Source: a bacterium | GTDB taxonomy: Bacteria > Patescibacteriota > Minisyncoccia > Phycocordibacterales > SBAW01 | Length of the DNA: 64,000 bases | Direction: 5' to 3' | NCBI GenBank assembly: GCA_021839985.1 | Contig: JAKBZO010000001.1 | Span: 676 to 64,675 of the forward strand | In this document: positions 2,334-60,281 of the stretch, in pieces | How the letters are laid out: each line of letters begins with the position of its first letter | How positions within the stretch are numbered: the first letter of the stretch is position 1 | The notes under the pieces: generated by a model | What the model saw: only the letters and a program-made list of their open reading frames with translations | What the model was told of the DNA's origin: nothing | The model's database searches: none | Program-made: the position numbers and the translations under genes

Positions 2334-2933
2334 TCACAACCCGGTTGCCATGAGTGATTCGTTGATCGATCGAATGAGCGCGCTGCGCGAGACGGCGGCA
2401 GACGCGGCGAGTTCCATCGACAGAGCGCTGTCGCCGATGAATGGCGCGAGCTCCGGCGTCTTTGGAAGATAGCCGAGATGATGGAGTGTGCGGAGTACCA
2501 GTACCGACTCGATGCCGTCGACTTCTTCGCGCGAACGCGCTGTAAGCAGAAGACCGATGCCCTCCACCACCTGATCATAAAGAGCGGGTGATGCTTCTTC
2601 GCCATGAATGAGGCGGGTGAGAAGCTGCAAGATCTTACCGACCGCATGCCGCGCATCGCGCGAACTTTCCGCGAATTGCGCGCGGTCCTTCTCGTGTTGG
2701 TGACCATTTACGATCTTCCACTCATGCTTGCCGCGCACCAGCGAAAAGCGCGCGATCGAAAGCGGCTCAAGAAAATAGCGCAGCTTCGATCGCGAGAGGC
2801 GGCTGCTTTGCGCTTTAGCATACAGAAGGCCGCGATCGCGCGTGAAGAGTACCGCGAGCGTGTTCGCTTCTCCGACGCCGCGCTTGCCAAGCACGATCCC
2901 CGGAGTAGTAAGAATGGTATGACCGAGGCTCAT
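2334..2933 (-). CDS. recO: DNA repair protein RecO
   Basis: The N-terminal OB-fold signature GIVLGKRGVGEANTLAVLFTRDRGLL and the C-terminal ...LRTLHHLGYLPK pattern are typical of RecO. Its length and its position next to a tRNA-synthetase gene are also compatible. Confidence 0.65.
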   Translation of the reverse strand: MSLGHTILTTPGIVLGKRGVGEANTLAVLFTRDRGLLYAKAQSSRLSRSKLRYFLEPLSIARFSLVRGKHEWKIVNGHQHEKDRAQFAESSRDARHAVGKILQLLTRLIHGEEASPALYDQVVEGIGLLLTARSREEVDGIESVLVLRTLHHLGYLPKTPELAPFIGDSALSMELAASAAVSRSALIRSINESLMATGL

Positions 2934-5900
2934 TGGGTGAGGATGAATCGAACGGGCATATTGAGTGATGGATGGATGGAGAGGTCTGCGGCGCGCATGA
3001 TCTCAAGCGCGCCAAGACCGGTCTGTGCGATGAGGTCATGCTTGTGCGACTCGAAGAACGCTTCCCATTCTTCGTCCACATCGACGCGCAGTGTCGGCCG
3101 GTCATTCACTAAGAGGCCTTCCTTTTTGCGCAGATCTTGGATCATCCGCGCGACGTCGCGCACCAGACCTTCTTCGCGCAGCTCATCCGTGATCGCGATG
3201 TCGAGCCACACGTCCTCTTCCATGTCAGTGTCGGTCTCGATGACCTTCACGTTCACTTCATCGGCGATGATGGCGCGCAGCACTTGATCATCCGGCAGTT
3301 CGCGCACTTTAAGAAGCGCGAGCGGCTGGCGCACCTTTATGCCGGAGGCGTCGCGGCGCTCAAGCGCGCGCGATGCGACGGTACGAATGATCGCCATGTC
3401 CGCGAGGATCTTTTCATCGACCGCGATATTCTCCGGCCAGTTCTCCAAGTGGACGCTCTCCTTTTCTCCACCCGCGCCCCGGTACACGCTCTCTGCAATG
3501 AACGGCATGAGCGGCGCCACGAGTTTTGCGAGCGCGAGCAAGACCTCGCGCTGTGTGGCAAGAGCAAATTGTTTGTCAGTAGCGTCCGCGCCCGTTCGCA
3601 CGCGATCGCGTGAGCGGCGCACATACCAGGTCGAATAATCTTCGATGAACGGGCGTAGTGCTCGCACGGAGCGCGGCATGTCGTAGGACTCCATCGCGTC
3701 GGTCATCTCGCGCACGAGCTCTCCCAAGCGCGAACGGACCCAATGATCAAGCGGATGCGGACTGTTCTCGCTTTCGGTCGCTCCGTCGTATTCCTCTTTA
3801 TAAAGCTCGAAGAATTTGTATGAGTTCCATAAAATGCCGATGACGCGGTTGTGCACCTCGCGCACGTCTTCATCGCGAAACGCGAAGTCCTCCGCCTGCA
3901 TCACCACGCTCCCCATCATATAGAGGCGCAGCGCGTCGGCGCCGTACTTATCGAGCAGCGCGAGCGGATCAGTGTAGTTGCCCTTGCTCTTGCTCATCTT
4001 GGAGCCGTCGGCGGCAAGCACGTTGCCGGTCACAACCGCGGCGCGGAACGACAGGCGATCAAAGAGCGCGACCGCCATCGCATGCATATAGTAAAACCAT
4101 GCGCGCGTCTGCCCGACATACTCGGCCACAAAATCGCCCGGCGCGCGCTTCTCGAATGCTTCGGCGTTCTCGAACGGATAGTGATATTCGGCGAACGGCA
4201 TGACGCCCGACTCCGCCCAACAGTCGATGACTTCCGGTATGCGGGTGTACTCTGCGCCATCGTCTCCGAGGAGCGTGATCGAATCGATATAGGGACGATG
4301 CAGGTCGAGATCGAATTTCGCGTTGAGCGGCAGCGGCTTGAACGGAAGTTCCATCACCTCGCCCGGCGCTGCCGCGAGATTCACTTCGCTCAGGAGATCG
4401 TCGCCGCGCGTGCCATCGAGCACTTCAACGAGCGACTTGAAGCCGACCGCGTGCGACACCATGACCACCGTCTTGTCCGCATACGTCTCCTCGTAGCCGT
4501 AGATCGCTTTGCCGAAACGGATCTTCGCTTCTTCAAAACTTTCGCCGTGATCGGGATGTACGGTGTACCAGTCGGGTCGTGCCAGCGCCTGTATCCACTC
4601 CGATTTCGGTCGGCCGTCATATTCGCCGAAGTTGAATTCTGCGAGCCGCTCATCGACGACGATCGAAGATCCATCAAGACCAAGCTCGCGCGCCATGATC
4701 GTGGCGGTCTCGCGCGCGCGGCGCACCGGCGAGGTCAGAAGCACCAGCGATTTCTCAGGCGTCTGTGCCAAGCTCGCGCGGATGGTGTGCGCCGCGCGCG
4801 CGGCCTGCTCCCGGCCCTTCTGCGTCAGCGGGTAGACGCTCTCTGGGTCGGCGGTGTAAATGCCCTTGCTCATATATTCCGACTCGCCGTGGCGCACGAT
4901 GAAGTATCGATTGCCCGCGGTCTTCGCGCGCTGCTTGAGCTCCTCCAAAGAGCCGACCACCATGTACCGGCCATCTTGTGCTTTCCAGATCGGCAGGGGC
5001 GACGCCCAGAAACGATTGCGCGAAATGGTCCAGTCGGGCGCATTGTCGACGATGTGTTTGAAACGACCATGCTTAAGATGCTCCGGCACCCACGTTATCT
5101 TTTCATTCTCTTCAAGAAGACGCGTCTTGATCTTCTGAATATTGATGAACCACGACGAGACCGCGTTGTAGACGAGCGCCGTCGAACAACGATAGCAGTG
5201 CGGATACGAGTGCGTGTGCTCCGCTTTCGCAAAAAGCAGACCGCGCTTCTCAAGATCTTCGATGATACGCTTGCCGCCCTTTTTGTAATACATGCCGACG
5301 ATGAACTCCGGCGCCATCGAGTTGTAGGAGCCGCTCGCGTCGAGCAGCTGGATCATCGGCAATCCTTCGCGCGCGCCGAGCGCGAAGTCGTCTTCGCCGT
5401 ACATGGGGGCAATGTGCACGATGCCGGTGCCGTCTTCGGTCGTGACGAAGTCGCCGGCATACACGCGATGCGCCACGCCCGACTTCTCCTCGCCTGCGAA
5501 TTCGTAGAGCGGTTCATATTCGAGACCGACCAAGTCTTTGCCCGATCGTTCCCAATCGAGCACATAGAGTATCTGCTTTTGTGCGAAAAAGTTATTCGTG
5601 TCCTGCGAAAGAATATAAAGTTCAGGGCTGTCTGGTTTTTTAGCGAGTTGGTATTTGATATTTTCACCCACCGCCAGCGCCATGTTTCCCGGCAGCGTCC
5701 ACGGCGTGGTAGTCCACGCGAGCAAATACACATCACCCGAAAGTCCGAGAGCGTTCGGGTCTTTGACCTTGAACTTCACCGTCACCGCCGTATCCGTCAC
5801 ATCCTTATAGGTGTTATCCATCGCGATCTCCGCTTTTGCCAGCGGCGTCTCGCAGTGCGGGCAGTACATGAGCACCTTGCGGCCTTCGTAGAGGAGCTCC

Positions 5901-6418
5901 TTCTCATGCAAGCGCTTGAGCGACCACCATACGCTCTCGATGTACGAGTTGTCCATCGTCTTGTACGAATGTTTGAAGTCGACCCATCGTCCGATGCGCT
6001 CGACATATTTCTCCCACTCGCGCTCGAATTCAAGCACGCTGGAGCGCGCCGCTTCGTTGAACGCCGCGATACCTACCTGCTCGATATCTTTTTTTGTCTT
6101 AAGACCGAGCCGTTTCTCAATGAGGCTCTCGATCGGAAGACCGTGGCAATCCCACCCCCACCGGCGGCGCACGCTATACCCGCGCATCGTCTTGTAGCGC
6201 GGCACGACATCCTTCACGATCGACGAGAGCAGCGAACCATAGTGCGGAAGGCCGGTCGCAAATGGCGGGCCATCATAAAATATGAACTCGCCATGTGGCG
6301 CATCTTTCCCTACCGACTTTTCAAAAATTTCGCGCTCTTTCCAAAAAGCGAGCACGCCCTCCTCGCGTTGCGCTATCTCCGTCTTTTCTTGCGTCTTCGC
6401 TTTCTGTTCCTCAGCCAT
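2930..6418 (-). CDS. ileS: Isoleucyl-tRNA synthetase of the type-2 (eukaryote/archaeal-like) class, carrying an inserted histidine-phosphatase domain
   Basis: The HIGH-region is FYDGPPFATGLPHYGS, followed by the CP1 editing domain, the WTISRNRFWASPLPIW motif, DLHRPYID and GSKMSKSKGN (KMSKS). Between the PIW and HRPY motifs sits an extra ~190 aa with a RHGESE...SHAVG histidine-phosphatase signature. Confidence 0.85.
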   Translation of the reverse strand: MAEEQKAKTQEKTEIAQREEGVLAFWKEREIFEKSVGKDAPHGEFIFYDGPPFATGLPHYGSLLSSIVKDVVPRYKTMRGYSVRRRWGWDCHGLPIESLIEKRLGLKTKKDIEQVGIAAFNEAARSSVLEFEREWEKYVERIGRWVDFKHSYKTMDNSYIESVWWSLKRLHEKELLYEGRKVLMYCPHCETPLAKAEIAMDNTYKDVTDTAVTVKFKVKDPNALGLSGDVYLLAWTTTPWTLPGNMALAVGENIKYQLAKKPDSPELYILSQDTNNFFAQKQILYVLDWERSGKDLVGLEYEPLYEFAGEEKSGVAHRVYAGDFVTTEDGTGIVHIAPMYGEDDFALGAREGLPMIQLLDASGSYNSMAPEFIVGMYYKKGGKRIIEDLEKRGLLFAKAEHTHSYPHCYRCSTALVYNAVSSWFINIQKIKTRLLEENEKITWVPEHLKHGRFKHIVDNAPDWTISRNRFWASPLPIWKAQDGRYMVVGSLEELKQRAKTAGNRYFIVRHGESEYMSKGIYTADPESVYPLTQKGREQAARAAHTIRASLAQTPEKSLVLLTSPVRRARETATIMARELGLDGSSIVVDERLAEFNFGEYDGRPKSEWIQALARPDWYTVHPDHGESFEEAKIRFGKAIYGYEETYADKTVVMVSHAVGFKSLVEVLDGTRGDDLLSEVNLAAAPGEVMELPFKPLPLNAKFDLDLHRPYIDSITLLGDDGAEYTRIPEVIDCWAESGVMPFAEYHYPFENAEAFEKRAPGDFVAEYVGQTRAWFYYMHAMAVALFDRLSFRAAVVTGNVLAADGSKMSKSKGNYTDPLALLDKYGADALRLYMMGSVVMQAEDFAFRDEDVREVHNRVIGILWNSYKFFELYKEEYDGATESENSPHPLDHWVRSRLGELVREMTDAMESYDMPRSVRALRPFIEDYSTWYVRRSRDRVRTGADATDKQFALATQREVLLALAKLVAPLMPFIAESVYRGAGGEKESVHLENWPENIAVDEKILADMAIIRTVASRALERRDASGIKVRQPLALLKVRELPDDQVLRAIIADEVNVKVIETDTDMEEDVWLDIAITDELREEGLVRDVARMIQDLRKKEGLLVNDRPTLRVDVDEEWEAFFESHKHDLIAQTGLGALEIMRAADLSIHPSLNMPVRFILTQ
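4350..4900 (-). other. Histidine-phosphatase (PGAM-like) domain inserted in frame within the ileS catalytic core
   Basis: The codons for RHGESEYM lie at 4861-4884 on the minus strand. The second catalytic His sits in VVMVSHAVGF. In Thermus-type IleRS the same motif boundaries are separated by only about 40 aa. Confidence 0.55.
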
Positions 6419-6446
6419 ACATAAGAATATATAGGTATATCACCCA

Positions 6447-6480
6447 AATTAAAAGGCGGTACGTTTCTCAACGTTCCGCC
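6447..6480 (-). terminator. Intrinsic terminator hairpin with U-tract, about 30 nt upstream of the ileS start; the end of a putative regulatory leader
   Basis: The minus strand reads ggcggaacgttgagaaacgtaccgccttttaattt. It lies about 400 nt downstream of the argS stop and directly before the ileS RBS, which suggests an attenuator or T-box-like leader. Confidence 0.5.
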
Positions 6481-6710
6481 TTCTCGATCAGATCGGTCAT
6501 TTTTCGACCTTGAACCTACCAGACATGCCTGCCGTACGAGGTTCCTAAGAGTTCTGACACGGGGTGCCGAATCCCTACCCTTGTGCCGGATGGTATGTCC
6601 GGCCGCTACTTCGCTTTCTGAAGAACATGGCGTCTCCCTGGCCTGATGATCGTGGCGATCACTGAAACTACTGGTAAAAGTAGAGCATGATTGCTGCGAA
6701 AAGTCAAGCT
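6481..6710 (-). promoter_or_regulatory. Putative ileS leader RNA, a possible T-box-like attenuator, with a candidate promoter (TTGACT near 6702-6707)
   Basis: A sigma70-like -35 TTGACT with a weak -10 would give a ~250-nt leader containing AUC(A) triplets, several stems and a terminal terminator. No clean T-box consensus was found. Confidence 0.25.
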
Positions 6711-6852
6711 TTTATTTACAGCGCGAATCCGCTCAAAATCGATGAGATGCGAGGCGTGGGCGAGGAGCGAAGTGAGCCTTACTTGAGCCGTAAGGCGAGT
6801 GAGTACCGAAGTCCACAACGACGCAGGTCGCGGTTTTGAGCGGATCCGAACA

Positions 6853-8532
6853 TTACATTTCCTCGGGTGCTGAAATACCCAAAAGCCACAAGCCGTTTTT
6901 GAGCGTTTGGCGCACGGCACTGACGAGCGCGAGTTTGTCCGCGGCATCTGGCGTGCCAAGGATCCGCTCCTGCGCATACCAGGAGTTGAAGGCGCTTGAA
7001 AGTTCAATGAGATACTGCGCGACGAAGTGAGGTTCGTACTGCACCGCAGCGCGCTCCACCACCTCCGGAAAGCGCGGCAGAAGTCGCTCGATGTCGGGCG
7101 CGATGCCGCCGCGAACATGCGCGGACAACGCGACACTCTCCTCTTCTGCCCTCTTGAGCACGGACACGCAGCGCGTGTGCGCGTACTGGATATACGGACC
7201 GGACTCGCCTTCAAGTGAAAGGGATTTCTCCGGATCGAAAATAATGTTCTTACCCGCGCCCTGCTTGAGCACGGAAAACTTTATCGCGGCAACAGCGATC
7301 TGCCGTGCGACCTCCTCGGGGTTCGCCACACCGCGCTCCCCCATTTTTTCTTTCGCCGCCGTGATCATATCGCCGATGAGCGACTCGCCGGTGATGACGT
7401 TGCCTTTGCGCGACGACATCTTGCCGCTCTGGAGTTGCATCATGCCGTGATGGATGTGCTCGAAGACGCCTTTCCACTCTGGATAGATAAGCTCAAGTGC
7501 TGTGAACACGACGTTGAAGTACGCTTCTTGCTCAAGCGCGGTCACGGTGATCGAGCGATCGAACGCGCAGCGCTCGCGCTTCATCTGCGCAAGGCCGATC
7601 TCTTTCGCTTCGTAGGTCGGCAGTCCTTGCTTGTTGACGAAGACGCGGGTATGGAGCTTCGGGTCATGCTCTTCCCCATGGAACACGATCGCGCCGTCGC
7701 TCTCAACGAATAGCTCCGGATGAGCGTGCACGACCTCAAGGCCTCGCGGTCCGGTCTCGCTTTCGAAGAAGTATTCATCAAAAGATGTTCCAAGAAGCGC
7801 GTAGATATCTTCAAAATGCTTCAGGGTCTCCTCGCGTCCCCAAGCATAGAGCGCGTTGATCTTTTCATCGCTCTTCTCATATACTTTCTTGTTGATCTCT
7901 TCGATCTCACGCTTCGCGTCTGTATTTTCTTCGTAAGCGGCGGCGCCGCGCACATATGCTGCACTGATCTGTGCGACCGTCGACTGTGCGAGACCTTCCT
8001 GCAGGAGCCCCCAGATCGCTTTGGCGACATGCGGGCCGACATCGCCTTGATAGTTGGCGCGGATGACATCGGCGCCCGAGTGCTCAAAGAGCCGCGCCAC
8101 GCTCTCGCCGATAGCATTGCTCATGAGGTGACCGATGTGAAATTCTTTGAACGGATTCGGGTCGGTGTATTCGACCATGATCGTCTTGCCTGACCAAGCG
8201 TCATTGCTTCCCCACCGGTCGCCTTCTTCGCGCGCAGCGACGATCGCCGTGGCGCGCGACTCGCTGGAGAGGAAGATGTTGAGAAAACCCGGACCGGCGA
8301 TCTCGATCTTCTCGACGCCCGAGATATGCGCCTCTTCAAGCGCGGCGTGCATGGCGACGGCGACATCGCGCGGTTTCTGGCCAAGCTGCTTTCCTGCGAC
8401 CAGCGCCGCATTGCAGGCGTAGTCCGCACCGGTCTCCGCCGGCGGATATTCAACGACGAAAGCGGCGTCGGGAGCACCCAACCGCGCGAGAGCGCCGCGC
8501 ACCGCCGCTTCTATCTTTTCTTTCATATTCAC
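6853..8532 (-). CDS. argS: Arginyl-tRNA synthetase
   Basis: 559 aa. The HIGH-class motif is ...FHIGHLMSNAIGESVARL..., and KMSSRKGNVITGESLI is the KMSK-like motif. The N-terminal Arg_tRNA_synt_N-like region and the C-terminal DALR-like helix region are present. Confidence 0.85.
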   Translation of the reverse strand: MNMKEKIEAAVRGALARLGAPDAAFVVEYPPAETGADYACNAALVAGKQLGQKPRDVAVAMHAALEEAHISGVEKIEIAGPGFLNIFLSSESRATAIVAAREEGDRWGSNDAWSGKTIMVEYTDPNPFKEFHIGHLMSNAIGESVARLFEHSGADVIRANYQGDVGPHVAKAIWGLLQEGLAQSTVAQISAAYVRGAAAYEENTDAKREIEEINKKVYEKSDEKINALYAWGREETLKHFEDIYALLGTSFDEYFFESETGPRGLEVVHAHPELFVESDGAIVFHGEEHDPKLHTRVFVNKQGLPTYEAKEIGLAQMKRERCAFDRSITVTALEQEAYFNVVFTALELIYPEWKGVFEHIHHGMMQLQSGKMSSRKGNVITGESLIGDMITAAKEKMGERGVANPEEVARQIAVAAIKFSVLKQGAGKNIIFDPEKSLSLEGESGPYIQYAHTRCVSVLKRAEEESVALSAHVRGGIAPDIERLLPRFPEVVERAAVQYEPHFVAQYLIELSSAFNSWYAQERILGTPDAADKLALVSAVRQTLKNGLWLLGISAPEEM

Positions 8533-57640: not shown

Positions 57641-58738
57641 TTATCTATTCATCGGCATTGCGAGATAGAAAAACGAATCATCAGCCACATCTTGGATGAG
57701 CGCTGGTCTTCCGGCGCCATTGAGACGAATACGAACACTCTCCCCCGCAAGCGGCGTCAGACCATCAGCAAGATACTTGCTATTGAACGTCATCGTGATC
57801 TGCTCGCCGGAAACCGCCGCCTTCAGCACGCACTCTTCTTCTCCAACATCAGCATTACGAGATGAAAGATGCACGGTCTTTTCTTTTGGCTGAACCACGA
57901 ACACCACCTGCAAGAATTTATCATTGAACACGGAGAGCCCTTTGAGTGCTTGAGAGAGATCCTCACGCAGCAACACCACCTCGGTGTTGAAGGTCTTCGG
58001 CACGATCTGCGTGTAGTTCGGATAGGTTCCATCGAGGAGGCGGCTCGTGTAGTACACTCCTTCTAGTTGTATCGAAAATTGATTGTCGTTGTAGTACACC
58101 TCAACATCACCCTTCACTCCTTCAAGGATACGCACCAACTCGCCCACATTACGCGCTGGCATAAGAAGGTTCGGTACCGACCCTGGGCTTTTAAGCGCTG
58201 CTTGTTTTTCTGCGAGACGGAACGAGTCGGTCGCAACAAAATACAATTTCCCCACATCGCCGTACACTAGTACGCTCTGGAGTTCTGGTTTTACGTTCGA
58301 CACCGAGGCGCAGTTGAGTACCGATCTGATACCTTTAGCGAGATCTTGTGCTTTTACCACAAAGGAATGCTCTGCCGGTATGCGCGGAAGGATCGGGAAA
58401 TCATCATGGGGAATGGTTTTTATAGTTGCTGATGTTCTCTCGGTTTTTAACTTCATAACTCCACCATCGACCGTACATTCGATCGAATGCCCGTGACTAT
58501 TTGAAAGGAAACCTATCAAAGTCGCGCTGGAAATAGCTGTCGCACCCGAGGAAAGAACTCGCGCCGGCACCACCACCTCAACGCCATATTCAAGATTGGT
58601 TGCTCGAAGCACTACCGAGTCGCCGTTCGTCTCAAGATAGATCGAATTTAAAGTCGGCATGGTCCCGCCGCGCTGTACGAACCGCGCCGCGATCGATGCT
58701 GCCTCAACCAAGTTTTCCACCGTACATTCGAATTTCAT
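57641..58738 (-). CDS. dnaN: DNA polymerase III beta sliding clamp
   Basis: 365 aa in a three-domain clamp. It is adjacent to dnaA, and the N-terminal MKFECTVENLVEAASIA is typical. Confidence 0.9.
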   Translation of the reverse strand: MKFECTVENLVEAASIAARFVQRGGTMPTLNSIYLETNGDSVVLRATNLEYGVEVVVPARVLSSGATAISSATLIGFLSNSHGHSIECTVDGGVMKLKTERTSATIKTIPHDDFPILPRIPAEHSFVVKAQDLAKGIRSVLNCASVSNVKPELQSVLVYGDVGKLYFVATDSFRLAEKQAALKSPGSVPNLLMPARNVGELVRILEGVKGDVEVYYNDNQFSIQLEGVYYTSRLLDGTYPNYTQIVPKTFNTEVVLLREDLSQALKGLSVFNDKFLQVVFVVQPKEKTVHLSSRNADVGEEECVLKAAVSGEQITMTFNSKYLADGLTPLAGESVRIRLNGAGRPALIQDVADDSFFYLAMPMNR

Positions 58739-58970
58739 AGTATTTGTTTTTAAATTAAATAAATCTCAAAATGAAGTAAGAAGGGGGTGTGGATAGTGGA
58801 TAGTAAAGAAGAGTGGTGTGGAATAAGTATTTTTTGTTTAGTTGGGAGTCTTGTTAGTTGTGGATTGTTCGGTGGGGTTGTGGATGGCTGCTGCGGTTCC
58901 CTTATTGCTCAGTTTTTACGAACGTCCTGTCCGTATCTTATCCACATCATCTCAACATGTTCCGTATCTG
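58739..58970. other. Candidate oriC segment: the AT-rich dnaA-dnaN spacer with clustered DnaA-box-like 9-mers
   Basis: tgtggatag and gtggatagt at about 58788-58805, tgtggaata at about 58815, tgtggattg at about 58862, tgtggatgg at about 58884, and a perfect ttatccaca at 58957-58965. Confidence 0.55.
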
Positions 58971-60281
58971 CTGAAGTTCTTGTAATAATTCACTATTGGT
59001 CTGGGTGTCCTTTTTGACTTTCTCGCACGAGTGAATGACAGTTGTGTGGTCGCGACCACCGAGCTTCTCGCCGATCGTTGGGAATGAGATCTTGAAATCC
59101 TCGCGCAGGATATACATAACGACCTGGCGCGGGTGGACCACCTCTTTTCGGCGCGTCTTTTCGTAAATATCGTTCTCTTCGATGTTATAGAATTCAGCGA
59201 TAATTTTAACGATCTCAGGGATGGAGATCGACTTCTTCGGCGCCGCGGCAGCGCGCAGGAGCTCTTTTACATCAATCAGCGAGAGTGGGCCATCGCGCAT
59301 TTCCAGCGAGAGAAGAAGAGTGTTGATCGCGCCTTCAAGCTCGCGCACGTTGCCGTTCACGGTCGATGCGACATAGTCGGAGATCTCGTCCGGCAGTACG
59401 CTGCCGCGCGAGGCGGCTTTTGCACGCACGATCGCCACGCGGCTCTCATGATCGGGCGGCGTGATCGACACCACCATGCCTTGGCTGAAGCGCGACTTAA
59501 GGCGATCAACGAGTTTTTGGATCAGATTAGGGTGCTGGTCTGACGAGAACACGAGCTGACGGTTCTTGTCGAAGAGCGCGTTGAATAGGTGGAAGAGCTC
59601 TTCCTGCGTACCGCTTTTTCCGGAGAGGAATTGGATGTCATCCATGACAAGCAGGTCGTACTCGCGGTACTTTTCTTTGAACGCAGGGATGCGGCTCGAT
59701 TGCATCGCGGCGACGTACTCCAGATAGAACTTCTCTGACGTGATGTAGTAGATCTTCCGCTCCGGCGCTTGTGCGCGGAAACTATTCCCTATCGCTTGAA
59801 TAAGATGCGTCTTACCAAGACCCGGTTCGCCGTACACAAAGAGCGGGTTGTAGGCAATGCCCGGCTTCTTGGAGACCGCCTGAGCGGCGGCGTGTGCGAG
59901 TTCATTGAATGGACCCACGATGAACGAGTTGAAGGTGTAGCGCGGATTGAGGTTGGTCTGAGAATGGACATTCTCAAGCGGCAGCTCGCCAAGCGACGTC
60001 GCAGGGCGAACCTCCTCCGCGCTTTTTTTCGGATGTTTCGAGATGATGTATTCGACCGAACGAACATTCTCCGAAAGACGGCGCAGAGAAGCGAGAATGA
60101 GTTTGTGATATTTGGTCGCGAACCAGTCGCGGATGAATTGGCTCGGAACGCCGACGAATACGACGCCGTCGTCGACGCGGACGATGTGGGTGTCGCGGAA
60201 CCAGGTATTAAAGGCGGCTTTCGGGATGGTGAGTTCGAGATCGGTAAGGGCGTTCTCCCAGAGTTCGCGCGTGGTGGTCAT
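58947..60281 (-). CDS. dnaA: Chromosomal replication initiator DnaA
   Basis: An AAA+ domain with Walker A GEPGLGKTHL, a DnaA box-binding C-terminal domain, and a perfect DnaA box tgtggataa upstream at 60347-60355. Confidence 0.9.
   Translation of the reverse strand: MTTTRELWENALTDLELTIPKAAFNTWFRDTHIVRVDDGVVFVGVPSQFIRDWFATKYHKLILASLRRLSENVRSVEYIISKHPKKSAEEVRPATSLGELPLENVHSQTNLNPRYTFNSFIVGPFNELAHAAAQAVSKKPGIAYNPLFVYGEPGLGKTHLIQAIGNSFRAQAPERKIYYITSEKFYLEYVAAMQSSRIPAFKEKYREYDLLVMDDIQFLSGKSGTQEELFHLFNALFDKNRQLVFSSDQHPNLIQKLVDRLKSRFSQGMVVSITPPDHESRVAIVRAKAASRGSVLPDEISDYVASTVNGNVRELEGAINTLLLSLEMRDGPLSLIDVKELLRAAAAPKKSISIPEIVKIIAEFYNIEENDIYEKTRRKEVVHPRQVVMYILREDFKISFPTIGEKLGGRDHTTVIHSCEKVKKDTQTNSELLQELQQIRNMLR

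Follow-up and report, generated by a model that had tools for sequence, protein, structure and literature searches.

A histidine phosphatase domain embedded in the type-2 isoleucyl-tRNA synthetase of Patescibacteria

Introduction

In a 64,000-nucleotide stretch of a patescibacterial genome (assembly GCA_021839985.1, contig JAKBZO010000001.1, positions 676 to 64,675; hereafter the window), the ileS gene encodes a type-2 isoleucyl-tRNA synthetase (IleRS) that carries a predicted histidine phosphatase within its own chain. In the explanation favoured here, which is considered moderately probable, the insert is an active enzyme captured from a neighbouring gene, it acts on a small phosphorylated substrate and a partnership with IleRS is likely. 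The protein would then be two enzymes on one chain, a type-2 IleRS host and a histidine phosphatase guest. Aminoacyl-tRNA synthetases belong to the most highly conserved enzymes and, to our knowledge, extra catalytic domains beyond the editing domains are rare in the bacterial ones. The literature searched contained no account of an aminoacyl-tRNA synthetase that harbours a histidine phosphatase, and a phosphatase insert is not mentioned in a 2026 preprint on IleRS domain evolution. The fusion sequences themselves are already in public databases, where both Pfam domains are recorded.

Position and identity of the inserted domain

The ileS gene lies at positions 2930..6418 of the minus strand and forms an open reading frame (ORF) of 1162 residues. 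In the Pfam scan of its product, the tRNA-synt_1 family is split into two halves with His_Phos_1 (PF00300) between them. The latter matches residues 506-670 (4409..4903, minus strand) with an E value of 9.3e-28 and a score of 97.6 bits, compared with a gathering cutoff of 21.7. When aligned with the type-2 IleRS of Priestia megaterium (8C8U), residues 1-498 (4925..6418, minus strand; Pfam tRNA-synt_1 at 22-499) correspond to chain residues 11-478; this part runs through the first HUP half of the catalytic core and the CP1 editing domain into CP2, where it stops at the insertion point. Residues 703-1162 (2930..4312, minus strand) align from chain residue 485 and contain the HRPYID motif, the second HUP half, the domain that binds the anticodon and the C-terminal domains of type 2. 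Residue 498 is thus paired with chain residue 478 and residue 703 with chain residue 485, leaving about 200 residues in place of a loop of about 6. In the insert-free IleRS of syntenic genomes of the candidate phyla radiation (CPR), the two flanks are joined directly. The inserted segment (residues ~499-702; 4313..4924, minus strand) consists of the linker KTAGN, the histidine phosphatase domain and a second linker ending in ELPFKPLPLNAKF.

A first-pass annotation of the window had described a phosphoglycerate mutase-like domain of about 190 residues in IleRS at 4350-4900, which was essentially right and is refined by the boundaries given above to about 200 residues, linkers included. The same annotation had placed the domain inside the catalytic core, between the motifs that flank it. 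The flanking motifs are indeed those quoted: ISRNRFW (residue 465) and PLPIW (474) precede the insert, in which RHGES (509; window 4894-4880), TSPVRRA (562) and VSHAVGF (654) follow one another, and HRPYID (707) and KMSKS (807; 3986-4000, minus strand) come after it. In PmIleRS2, the HUP core was delimited to residues 40-168 and 513-632, with CP1 and CP2 between them (PMC10485003). Because of these residue ranges, the insertion point is assigned to CP2, just ahead of the start of the second core half, where no core strand or helix is interrupted.

Both hallmark motifs of the superfamily that had been pointed out, RHG and SH, are present and belong to a full catalytic set formed by R509, H510, R567, E594 and H656. 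The RHG motif (R509-H510-G511; 4886..4894, minus strand) contains H510, the predicted phospho-accepting nucleophile. The second phosphate-pocket arginine, R567 (4718..4720, minus strand), lies in the motif S-P-x-x-R-(A/T)-x-E-T, the predicted general acid, E594 (4637..4639, minus strand), in the motif R-L-x-E-x-x-F-G, and the second catalytic histidine, H656 (4451..4453, minus strand), in the motif V-(S/T)-H. According to the chemistry of the superfamily, the phosphate would be held by R509, R567 and H656 and attacked by H510 to form a phospho-histidine, while E594 would protonate the leaving group and then activate a water molecule.

Three other origins of the insert were rejected. An intein is contradicted by the lack of any Hint or intein match in Pfam and by the junctions, located between KTAG and NRYF on one side and between PLN and AKF on the other, which lack intein residues. 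An assembly chimera or a recent horizontal transfer is contradicted by an uninterrupted ORF in 80 of 80 loci and by a composition that matches the host gene, with a G+C content at third codon positions of 0.77 in the insert and 0.72 in the host gene. The earlier description of a type-2 IleRS with an in-frame insert that is not intein-like was therefore upheld by the 8C8U alignment, by the TIGR00392 model, by the uninterrupted ORFs and by the absence of a Hint match. As judged from its sequence, the insert is a complete branch-1 histidine phosphatase, predicted to be active, and the loop in which it is grafted is exposed at the surface of the CP2 subdomain (the former Zn-knuckle).

The closest solved structures of the window IleRS are the type-2 enzymes 8C8U and 1ILE (Thermus thermophilus), with E values of ~1e-206 to 1e-209. 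They score ~690-700 bits versus ~296 bits for the type-1 enzyme 1FFY, which indicates a type-2 affinity. The ileS model of NCBIfam, TIGR00392, scores 833.7 bits for a curated cutoff of 621.4, and the Pfam families Anticodon_1 and DUF5915 cover residues 891-1034 and 1070-1132. With type-2 IleRS (8C8U/8C8V, 1ILE), the window protein shares whole-protein homology, the fold, KMSKS, the CP1 editing motifs and the type-2 C-terminal domains; it differs from them by the catalytic domain of ~200 residues at the ~6-residue CP2 loop, by HYGS in place of HxGH and by the loss of the cysteines of the second Zn-knuckle. In CP1, the editing-site motif WTTTPWTLPGN (residues 235-245; 5684..5716, minus strand) is intact, as it is, in this exact form, in 68 of the 81 family members (window included); GTGIVHIAPMYGEDD is present as well and the domain gives 1WK8-type editing-domain matches. 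The first Zn site (CPHC...CYRC) is also kept. With KMSKS, the editing motifs, the first Zn site and the anticodon-binding domains intact, the window protein is, by its motifs and domains, a complete type-2 IleRS, for which aminoacylation is predicted.

The second Zn-knuckle, a CxxC...CxxC arrangement around the insertion point (residues 478-486 and 714-726; about window 4961-4987 and 4241-4279, minus strand), is found in the consensus of the wider family. Its cysteines are absent from the window protein and from its 80 closest species.

Conservation and predicted fold

Conservation was evaluated in an alignment of 81 sequences, made of the window protein and 80 species-representative orthologues, and in a diverse set of 41 full-length representatives, whose identity with the window protein is 33-51%. 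The five catalytic residues R509, H510, R567, E594 and H656 are invariant in 81 of 81 orthologues. In the diverse set, no variation occurs at R509, H510, G535, S563, R567, E626 or H656, and at least 90% of the sequences have E594. The full pattern R-H-N-R-E-E-H (residues 509/510/516/567/594/626/656) was found in 111 of the 139 copies located at the insertion site of the window protein (site A) and in all 7 copies located at other sites of IleRS (sites B-D, described below). The linkers of the insert are short and conserved, with N503 present in 81 of 81 sequences and P697 and N699 in at least 78 of 81. The mean pairwise identity amounts to 0.40 in the insert, 0.56-0.59 in the catalytic-core segments, 0.49 in CP1 and the anticodon-binding domain and 0.38 in the C-terminal domain. 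Relative to an orthologue that is 90% identical (L004), the insert shows a ratio of non-synonymous to synonymous substitution rates (dN/dS) of 0.196, compared with 0.159 in the N-terminal core.

It had been envisaged that the insert could be an inactivated relic, a reading that is rejected because the catalytic set is invariant and dN/dS is 0.20. It had also been considered that the segment might turn out to be a common linker lacking the His/Arg constellation; the insert did prove to be common, but the constellation is fully conserved. A broader version of the same idea, in which the domain is inactive or serves as a structural or regulatory module, either as a stabiliser in lieu of the Zn knuckle that was lost or as a phosphate-sensing allosteric domain without turnover, is regarded as extremely improbable. 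Such a module would fit with the loss of the second Zn-knuckle cysteines around the insertion point in the clade of the window and with the faster evolution of the insert than of the catalytic core. The low dN/dS of the insert and the five invariant residues, which are kept in every complete extra copy, speak against it. Furthermore, wider family members possess both the Zn-knuckle cysteines and the insert, which implies that the insert did not take the place of the knuckle.

An AlphaFold2 model of the window IleRS was built with the 41 diverse fusions and reached a mean predicted local distance difference test score (pLDDT) of 90.5 and a predicted template modelling score (pTM) of 0.85, the insert being modelled at ~82-96 save for a floppy stretch at residues 675-680. 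In a Foldseek comparison, the IleRS model matched type-2 IleRS with TM scores, normalised to the target, of 0.82-0.93, and IleRS2 ranked first. In the predicted model, the insert adopts the alpha/beta fold of phosphoglycerate mutase-like proteins, and the structures that resemble it most are those of ordinary capped phosphatases and mutases with small-molecule substrates. The insert is only 23-27% identical to PhoE (1H2E), to PspA (4IJ5, a metal-independent phosphoserine phosphatase), to glucosyl-3-phosphoglycerate phosphatase (6S2Q) and to CobC (6E4B). The capped branch-1 phosphatases are free-standing, whereas the window domain is embedded in another enzyme. To judge from the capped fold, the substrate would most likely be a small phosphorylated metabolite or a nucleotide.

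Distribution and multi-copy variants

The presence of this domain in IleRS had been annotated as very unusual. On the contrary, the insert is common and lineage-wide in the IleRS of Patescibacteria/Paceibacteria, and it occurs there in multi-copy and multi-site variants. In a genome scan that retained one genome per species and matches spanning the whole insert and both junctions, it was found in at least 80 species genomes, all of them Patescibacteria/Paceibacteria-type metagenome-assembled genomes, with L004 as the nearest. A single ORF runs uninterrupted through the insert in each of the 80 species-representative loci. When 1.84 billion representatives were searched exhaustively, the best 150 clusters (50% identity) included ~130 whose match extended over the domain and its two junctions. 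The apparent rarity of the fusion in a word-indexed protein search with the insert and its flanks, which returned ~8 short fusion fragments, was a search artefact according to the exhaustive searches. The fusion looked like short and rare fragments in protein databases because contigs of the L001-L003 type are frameshift-ridden. On these three fusion-bearing contigs, nearly all genes are fragmented (the arginyl-tRNA synthetase, ArgRS, into 3-4 pieces and SHMT into 2), which is consistent with indel-rich long-read assemblies.

Some CPR IleRS contain 2-4 phosphatase domains (P0131, P0187, P0191, P0207, P0214, P0223, P0239 and P0244). Tandem copies occupy the same CP2 site (site A) in P0207, P0214 and P0239. 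Site B corresponds to window residues ~752-758 and is used in P0187 and P0244, while site C, at residues ~877-885 ahead of the anticodon-binding domain, is used in P0187, P0191, P0223, P0244 and the fragment P0032. A possible site D, at residues ~424-432, is seen in the four-copy protein P0131. The multiple copies are ~35-40% identical among themselves, and the five catalytic residues are kept in every complete copy; in one copy, N516 is replaced by Ala.

In P0158, a P-loop domain is found at site B beside a site-A phosphatase. It spans residues ~733-904, between the HYPFEN-equivalent and FPADFI, carries the sequence GACGAGKTT and matches AAA_18/AAA_33 at about the Pfam cutoffs. Its assignment to a specific kinase was rejected, the matches to APS kinase, shikimate kinase and Pnkp1 being non-significant (E ~0.02-0.05). 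In the window IleRS, the Pfam scan detected no P-loop domain, which places the protein outside the PFK-2/FBPase-2-like and Pnkp-like kinase-phosphatases. Two other proteins, P0241 (422 residues) and P0256 (363 residues), are composed of two tandem histidine phosphatase domains with full catalytic sets, and no IleRS part was detected in them.

Several known proteins combine a histidine phosphatase with another enzyme, namely the RNase H/acid phosphatase of the Rv2228c type (NF005567), MutT1 (Nudix and His_Phos) and PFK-2/FBPase-2. These are end-to-end fusions, whereas the window protein displays an internal loop insertion in another partner enzyme. In protein searches, the actinobacterial RNase H fusions were found to be more distant from the insert. 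A precedent for an IleRS with an extra catalytic-type domain is provided by the NCBI family NF040702, [quoted passage not shown], in which the guest is a GNAT domain. This model matches only the IleRS part of the window protein (320 bits versus a cutoff of 1999), and no literature was found on IleRS-GNAT proteins of this type.

Stand-alone relatives and origin of the insert

When a profile of the embedded copies was compared with 5.8 billion proteins, the best matches were stand-alone histidine phosphatases of ~186-200 residues, several of them labelled as patescibacterial. Among the top 120 profile matches, no other synthetase or architecture carrying this domain clade was found save IleRS fragments. 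The stand-alone phosphatases are ~28-33% identical to the window insert, and in 7 of the 7 contexts examined they lie within the argS/ileS block. In L084, L089 and L090, the order is argS, (an ORF of 47-51 residues), phosphatase, insert-free ileS (947-980 residues) and recO. In L085/L086 and L092, the phosphatase is followed by an insert-bearing ileS, and in L087/L088 it follows argS.

A metagenome scan extended this picture to 80 loci, 49 with the embedded form and 31 with a stand-alone gene, 28 of the latter being informative. In 23 of these 28 loci, ileS starts directly downstream of the phosphatase on the same strand, with a gap of -36 to +36 nucleotides (nts) in 21 loci and of 121 and 316 nts in the other two, and argS immediately precedes the phosphatase in 15 of the 28. 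In all 16 stand-alone loci where this could be measured, the ileS that follows is free of the insert. Conversely, none of the 49 embedded loci of the metagenome scan has a stand-alone copy within 8 kb, and a stand-alone His_Phos gene was detected near an insert-bearing ileS at 1 of 80 genome loci. No extra His_Phos gene was found elsewhere in the 64-kb window. In a crude neighbour-joining tree, 39 of the 49 embedded copies fall in one clade together with the stand-alone P0261, and the other syntenic stand-alone genes form its sister group. The stand-alone CPR phosphatases located between argS and ileS (P0261, P0263, P0265 and P0279) are the nearest sequence relatives of the insert and share with it the catalytic residues and the genomic block. 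They are nearly mutually exclusive with the insert, from which they differ as separate polypeptides of ~190 residues.

Since the nearest stand-alone relatives lie directly upstream of an insert-free ileS and insert-bearing loci are devoid of the separate gene, the insert is most likely a copied neighbour: a copy of the upstream phosphatase gene would have entered ileS at a permissive loop of CP2, and the original gene would have disappeared afterwards.

The gene order of the window (DUF2914, argS, ileS, recO and a DUF11 protein) matches that of the block. Upstream of ileS, argS (6853..8532, minus strand) encodes a protein of 559 residues with the Pfam families Arg_tRNA_synt_N, tRNA-synt_1d and DALR_1. 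Downstream, a recO-like gene (2334..2933, minus strand; 199 residues; Pfam RecO_N, E = 2.4e-10) overlaps the ileS stop. The argS-ileS spacer of 434 bp (6419..6852, minus strand) corresponds to the site that is occupied in related genomes by the stand-alone phosphatase and a small membrane ORF. In this spacer, tblastn revealed no significant relic of a stand-alone phosphatase (best E = 1.0), no homologue of the small ORF was found and Rfam gave no match.

The small ORF that separates argS from the stand-alone phosphatase encodes 47-51 residues with a K/R-rich N-terminus, a WDEE motif and one predicted hydrophobic helix. It was located at 5844-5993 in L084, 5841-5996 in L087, 5769-5912 in L090 and 85-240 in L091, and weak matches to it were noticed downstream of ileS in L027, L040 and L071. 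In L062 (1-4671), an ArgRS that is 50% identical to that of the window (residues 115-526) continues in frame into IleRS with no stop, which may represent a natural ArgRS-IleRS fusion or a sequencing error.

Possible functions and proposed partnership with isoleucyl-tRNA synthetase

A partnership between the phosphatase and IleRS is suggested because a tight operon pairing was replaced by a fusion. The two activities could reside in the same complex, be co-regulated or share a nucleotide or tRNA-linked substrate. An editing or proofreading role, as proposed earlier for the insert, found no support, the CP1 editing motifs being intact and the nearest structural relatives being ordinary capped small-molecule phosphatases.

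Several observations weigh against an active, captured phosphatase that works in partnership with IleRS. The insert and its stand-alone relatives fall below every curated NCBIfam cutoff. The best model is the short, archaeal-type dPGM (dPGM_arch, NF038349; cutoff 225), with 78.4 bits for the insert and 98-123 bits for the stand-alone relatives. The insert scores 35.1 with pgm_1 (TIGR01258; cutoff 81.7), 47.9 with PspA (NF045917; cutoff 350), 63.3 with CobC (TIGR03162; cutoff 162.9), 33.6 with SixA (TIGR00249; cutoff 74.5) and 81.2 with RNase H/acid phosphatase (NF005567; cutoff 326). Membership in the dPGM, PspA, CobC, SixA and RNase H/acid phosphatase families was rejected on these curated thresholds. 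To judge from the family matches, the domain may also act as a mutase instead of a phosphatase. Many CPR IleRS work without the insert, which is thus not required for aminoacylation as such. The donor gene is adjacent to ileS, which offers a neutral explanation for ileS being the recipient, and the adjacency could be inherited synteny devoid of functional meaning. In addition, the support of the neighbour-joining tree is modest (mean bootstrap F1 of 0.72), and some genomes keep both the stand-alone and the embedded copies (L085/L086 and L092 contexts).

Alternatively, the domain could be a passenger, that is, a housekeeping enzyme such as a PhoE-like phosphatase, a phosphoserine phosphatase or a short dPGM-type mutase with no mechanistic tie to isoleucine charging. 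It would have landed in ileS through the proximity of the donor gene and been kept since the loop is permissive and the fusion guarantees expression. This explanation, which is possible but rather doubtful, agrees with the generic nature of the closest structural relatives, with the short dPGM type of the best NCBIfam model, with the peripheral position of the CP2 loop and with the fact that stand-alone forms suffice in many lineages; the proximity of the donor gene would also account for repeated landings in ileS. However, the phosphatase and ileS abut or overlap in 21 of 28 informative loci across diverse CPR lineages, which goes beyond loose synteny, and the short conserved linkers (N503, P697/N699) suggest a fixed orientation and not a floppy tether. 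The use of three or four sites and of up to four copies per chain, with the catalytic residues kept, is also hard to explain by housekeeping dosage.

At the other extreme, the phosphatase could be a second, non-editing catalytic site that serves IleRS directly, as a dedicated partner that is separate in some CPR lineages and built-in in others. Its target would be a tRNA 3′-end adduct, a nucleotide by-product or a phosphorylated toxin or inhibitor directed at IleRS. This stronger form of the partnership is judged unlikely. A related proposal, in which the domain processes tRNA or nucleotide ends in cis near the IleRS active site, is viewed as very unlikely. The domain would strip a 2′/3′-phosphate or pyrophosphate from the tRNA 3′ end or hydrolyse AMP, a nucleoside diphosphate or another nucleotide by-product or inhibitor, with the consequence that tRNA(Ile) stays chargeable or that the reaction is pulled forward. 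The operon-to-fusion history with a tRNA synthetase is in line with this proposal, as is the pairing of a kinase fold with a phosphatase in P0158, which is reminiscent of end-healing enzymes despite the weakness of the matches. The tRNA genes of the window lack an encoded CCA, implying that 3′-end maintenance is needed anyway. Nevertheless, a capped architecture like that of PhoE and PspA typifies enzymes that act on small molecules rather than those directed at macromolecules, such as SixA, the kinase-fold similarity is non-significant and confined to one cluster, and a need restricted to IleRS among the synthetases is left unexplained.

HIGH-motif variants and other features of the window

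The class I HIGH signature of the window protein reads HYGS (residues 59-62; 6233..6244, minus strand), with the fourth His replaced by Ser, and the same motif is found in the nearest orthologue L004. Of the family members (window and L004-L083), 74 are aligned at this position, which reads A/GxHH in 37, HxGH in 19 and HxG(S/N/T) in 18, of which 15 are HxGS. The swapped A/GxHH motif was tied to mupirocin hyper-resistance in IleRS2 (PMC10485003). IleRS with HxGS appear to be undescribed.

Eight tRNA genes were located between 22429 and 39852 (His, Leu, Val, three Arg, Ser and Lys). Because none of them encodes the 3′ CCA, it must be added post-transcriptionally. At 57641-60281 (minus strand), ORFs of 365 and 444 residues are dnaN- and dnaA-like by their N-terminal sequences alone. 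As small ORFs resembling rnpA and yidC come next, the chromosomal origin region may lie within the window.

Significance

The HIGH-motif variants that occur in the same family make these IleRS of interest as antibiotic targets. With regard to the insert, the tight link with the upstream gene renders the IleRS-phosphatase partnership testable. Either IleRS needs a phosphatase activity in CPR hosts which, if true, would be new synthetase biology, or the fusion is a clear example from nature of an essential enzyme that took in a neighbour gene as one of its internal domains. Such a domestication would inform on protein evolution and on insertion-tolerant loops, which is useful for engineering. 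If the phosphatase were instead a dedicated partner of IleRS, the multi-site capture, the copy expansion and the P-loop pairing would reflect selection, possibly conflict-driven, on its activity, and the fusion would represent a previously undescribed auxiliary activity of an aminoacyl-tRNA synthetase.

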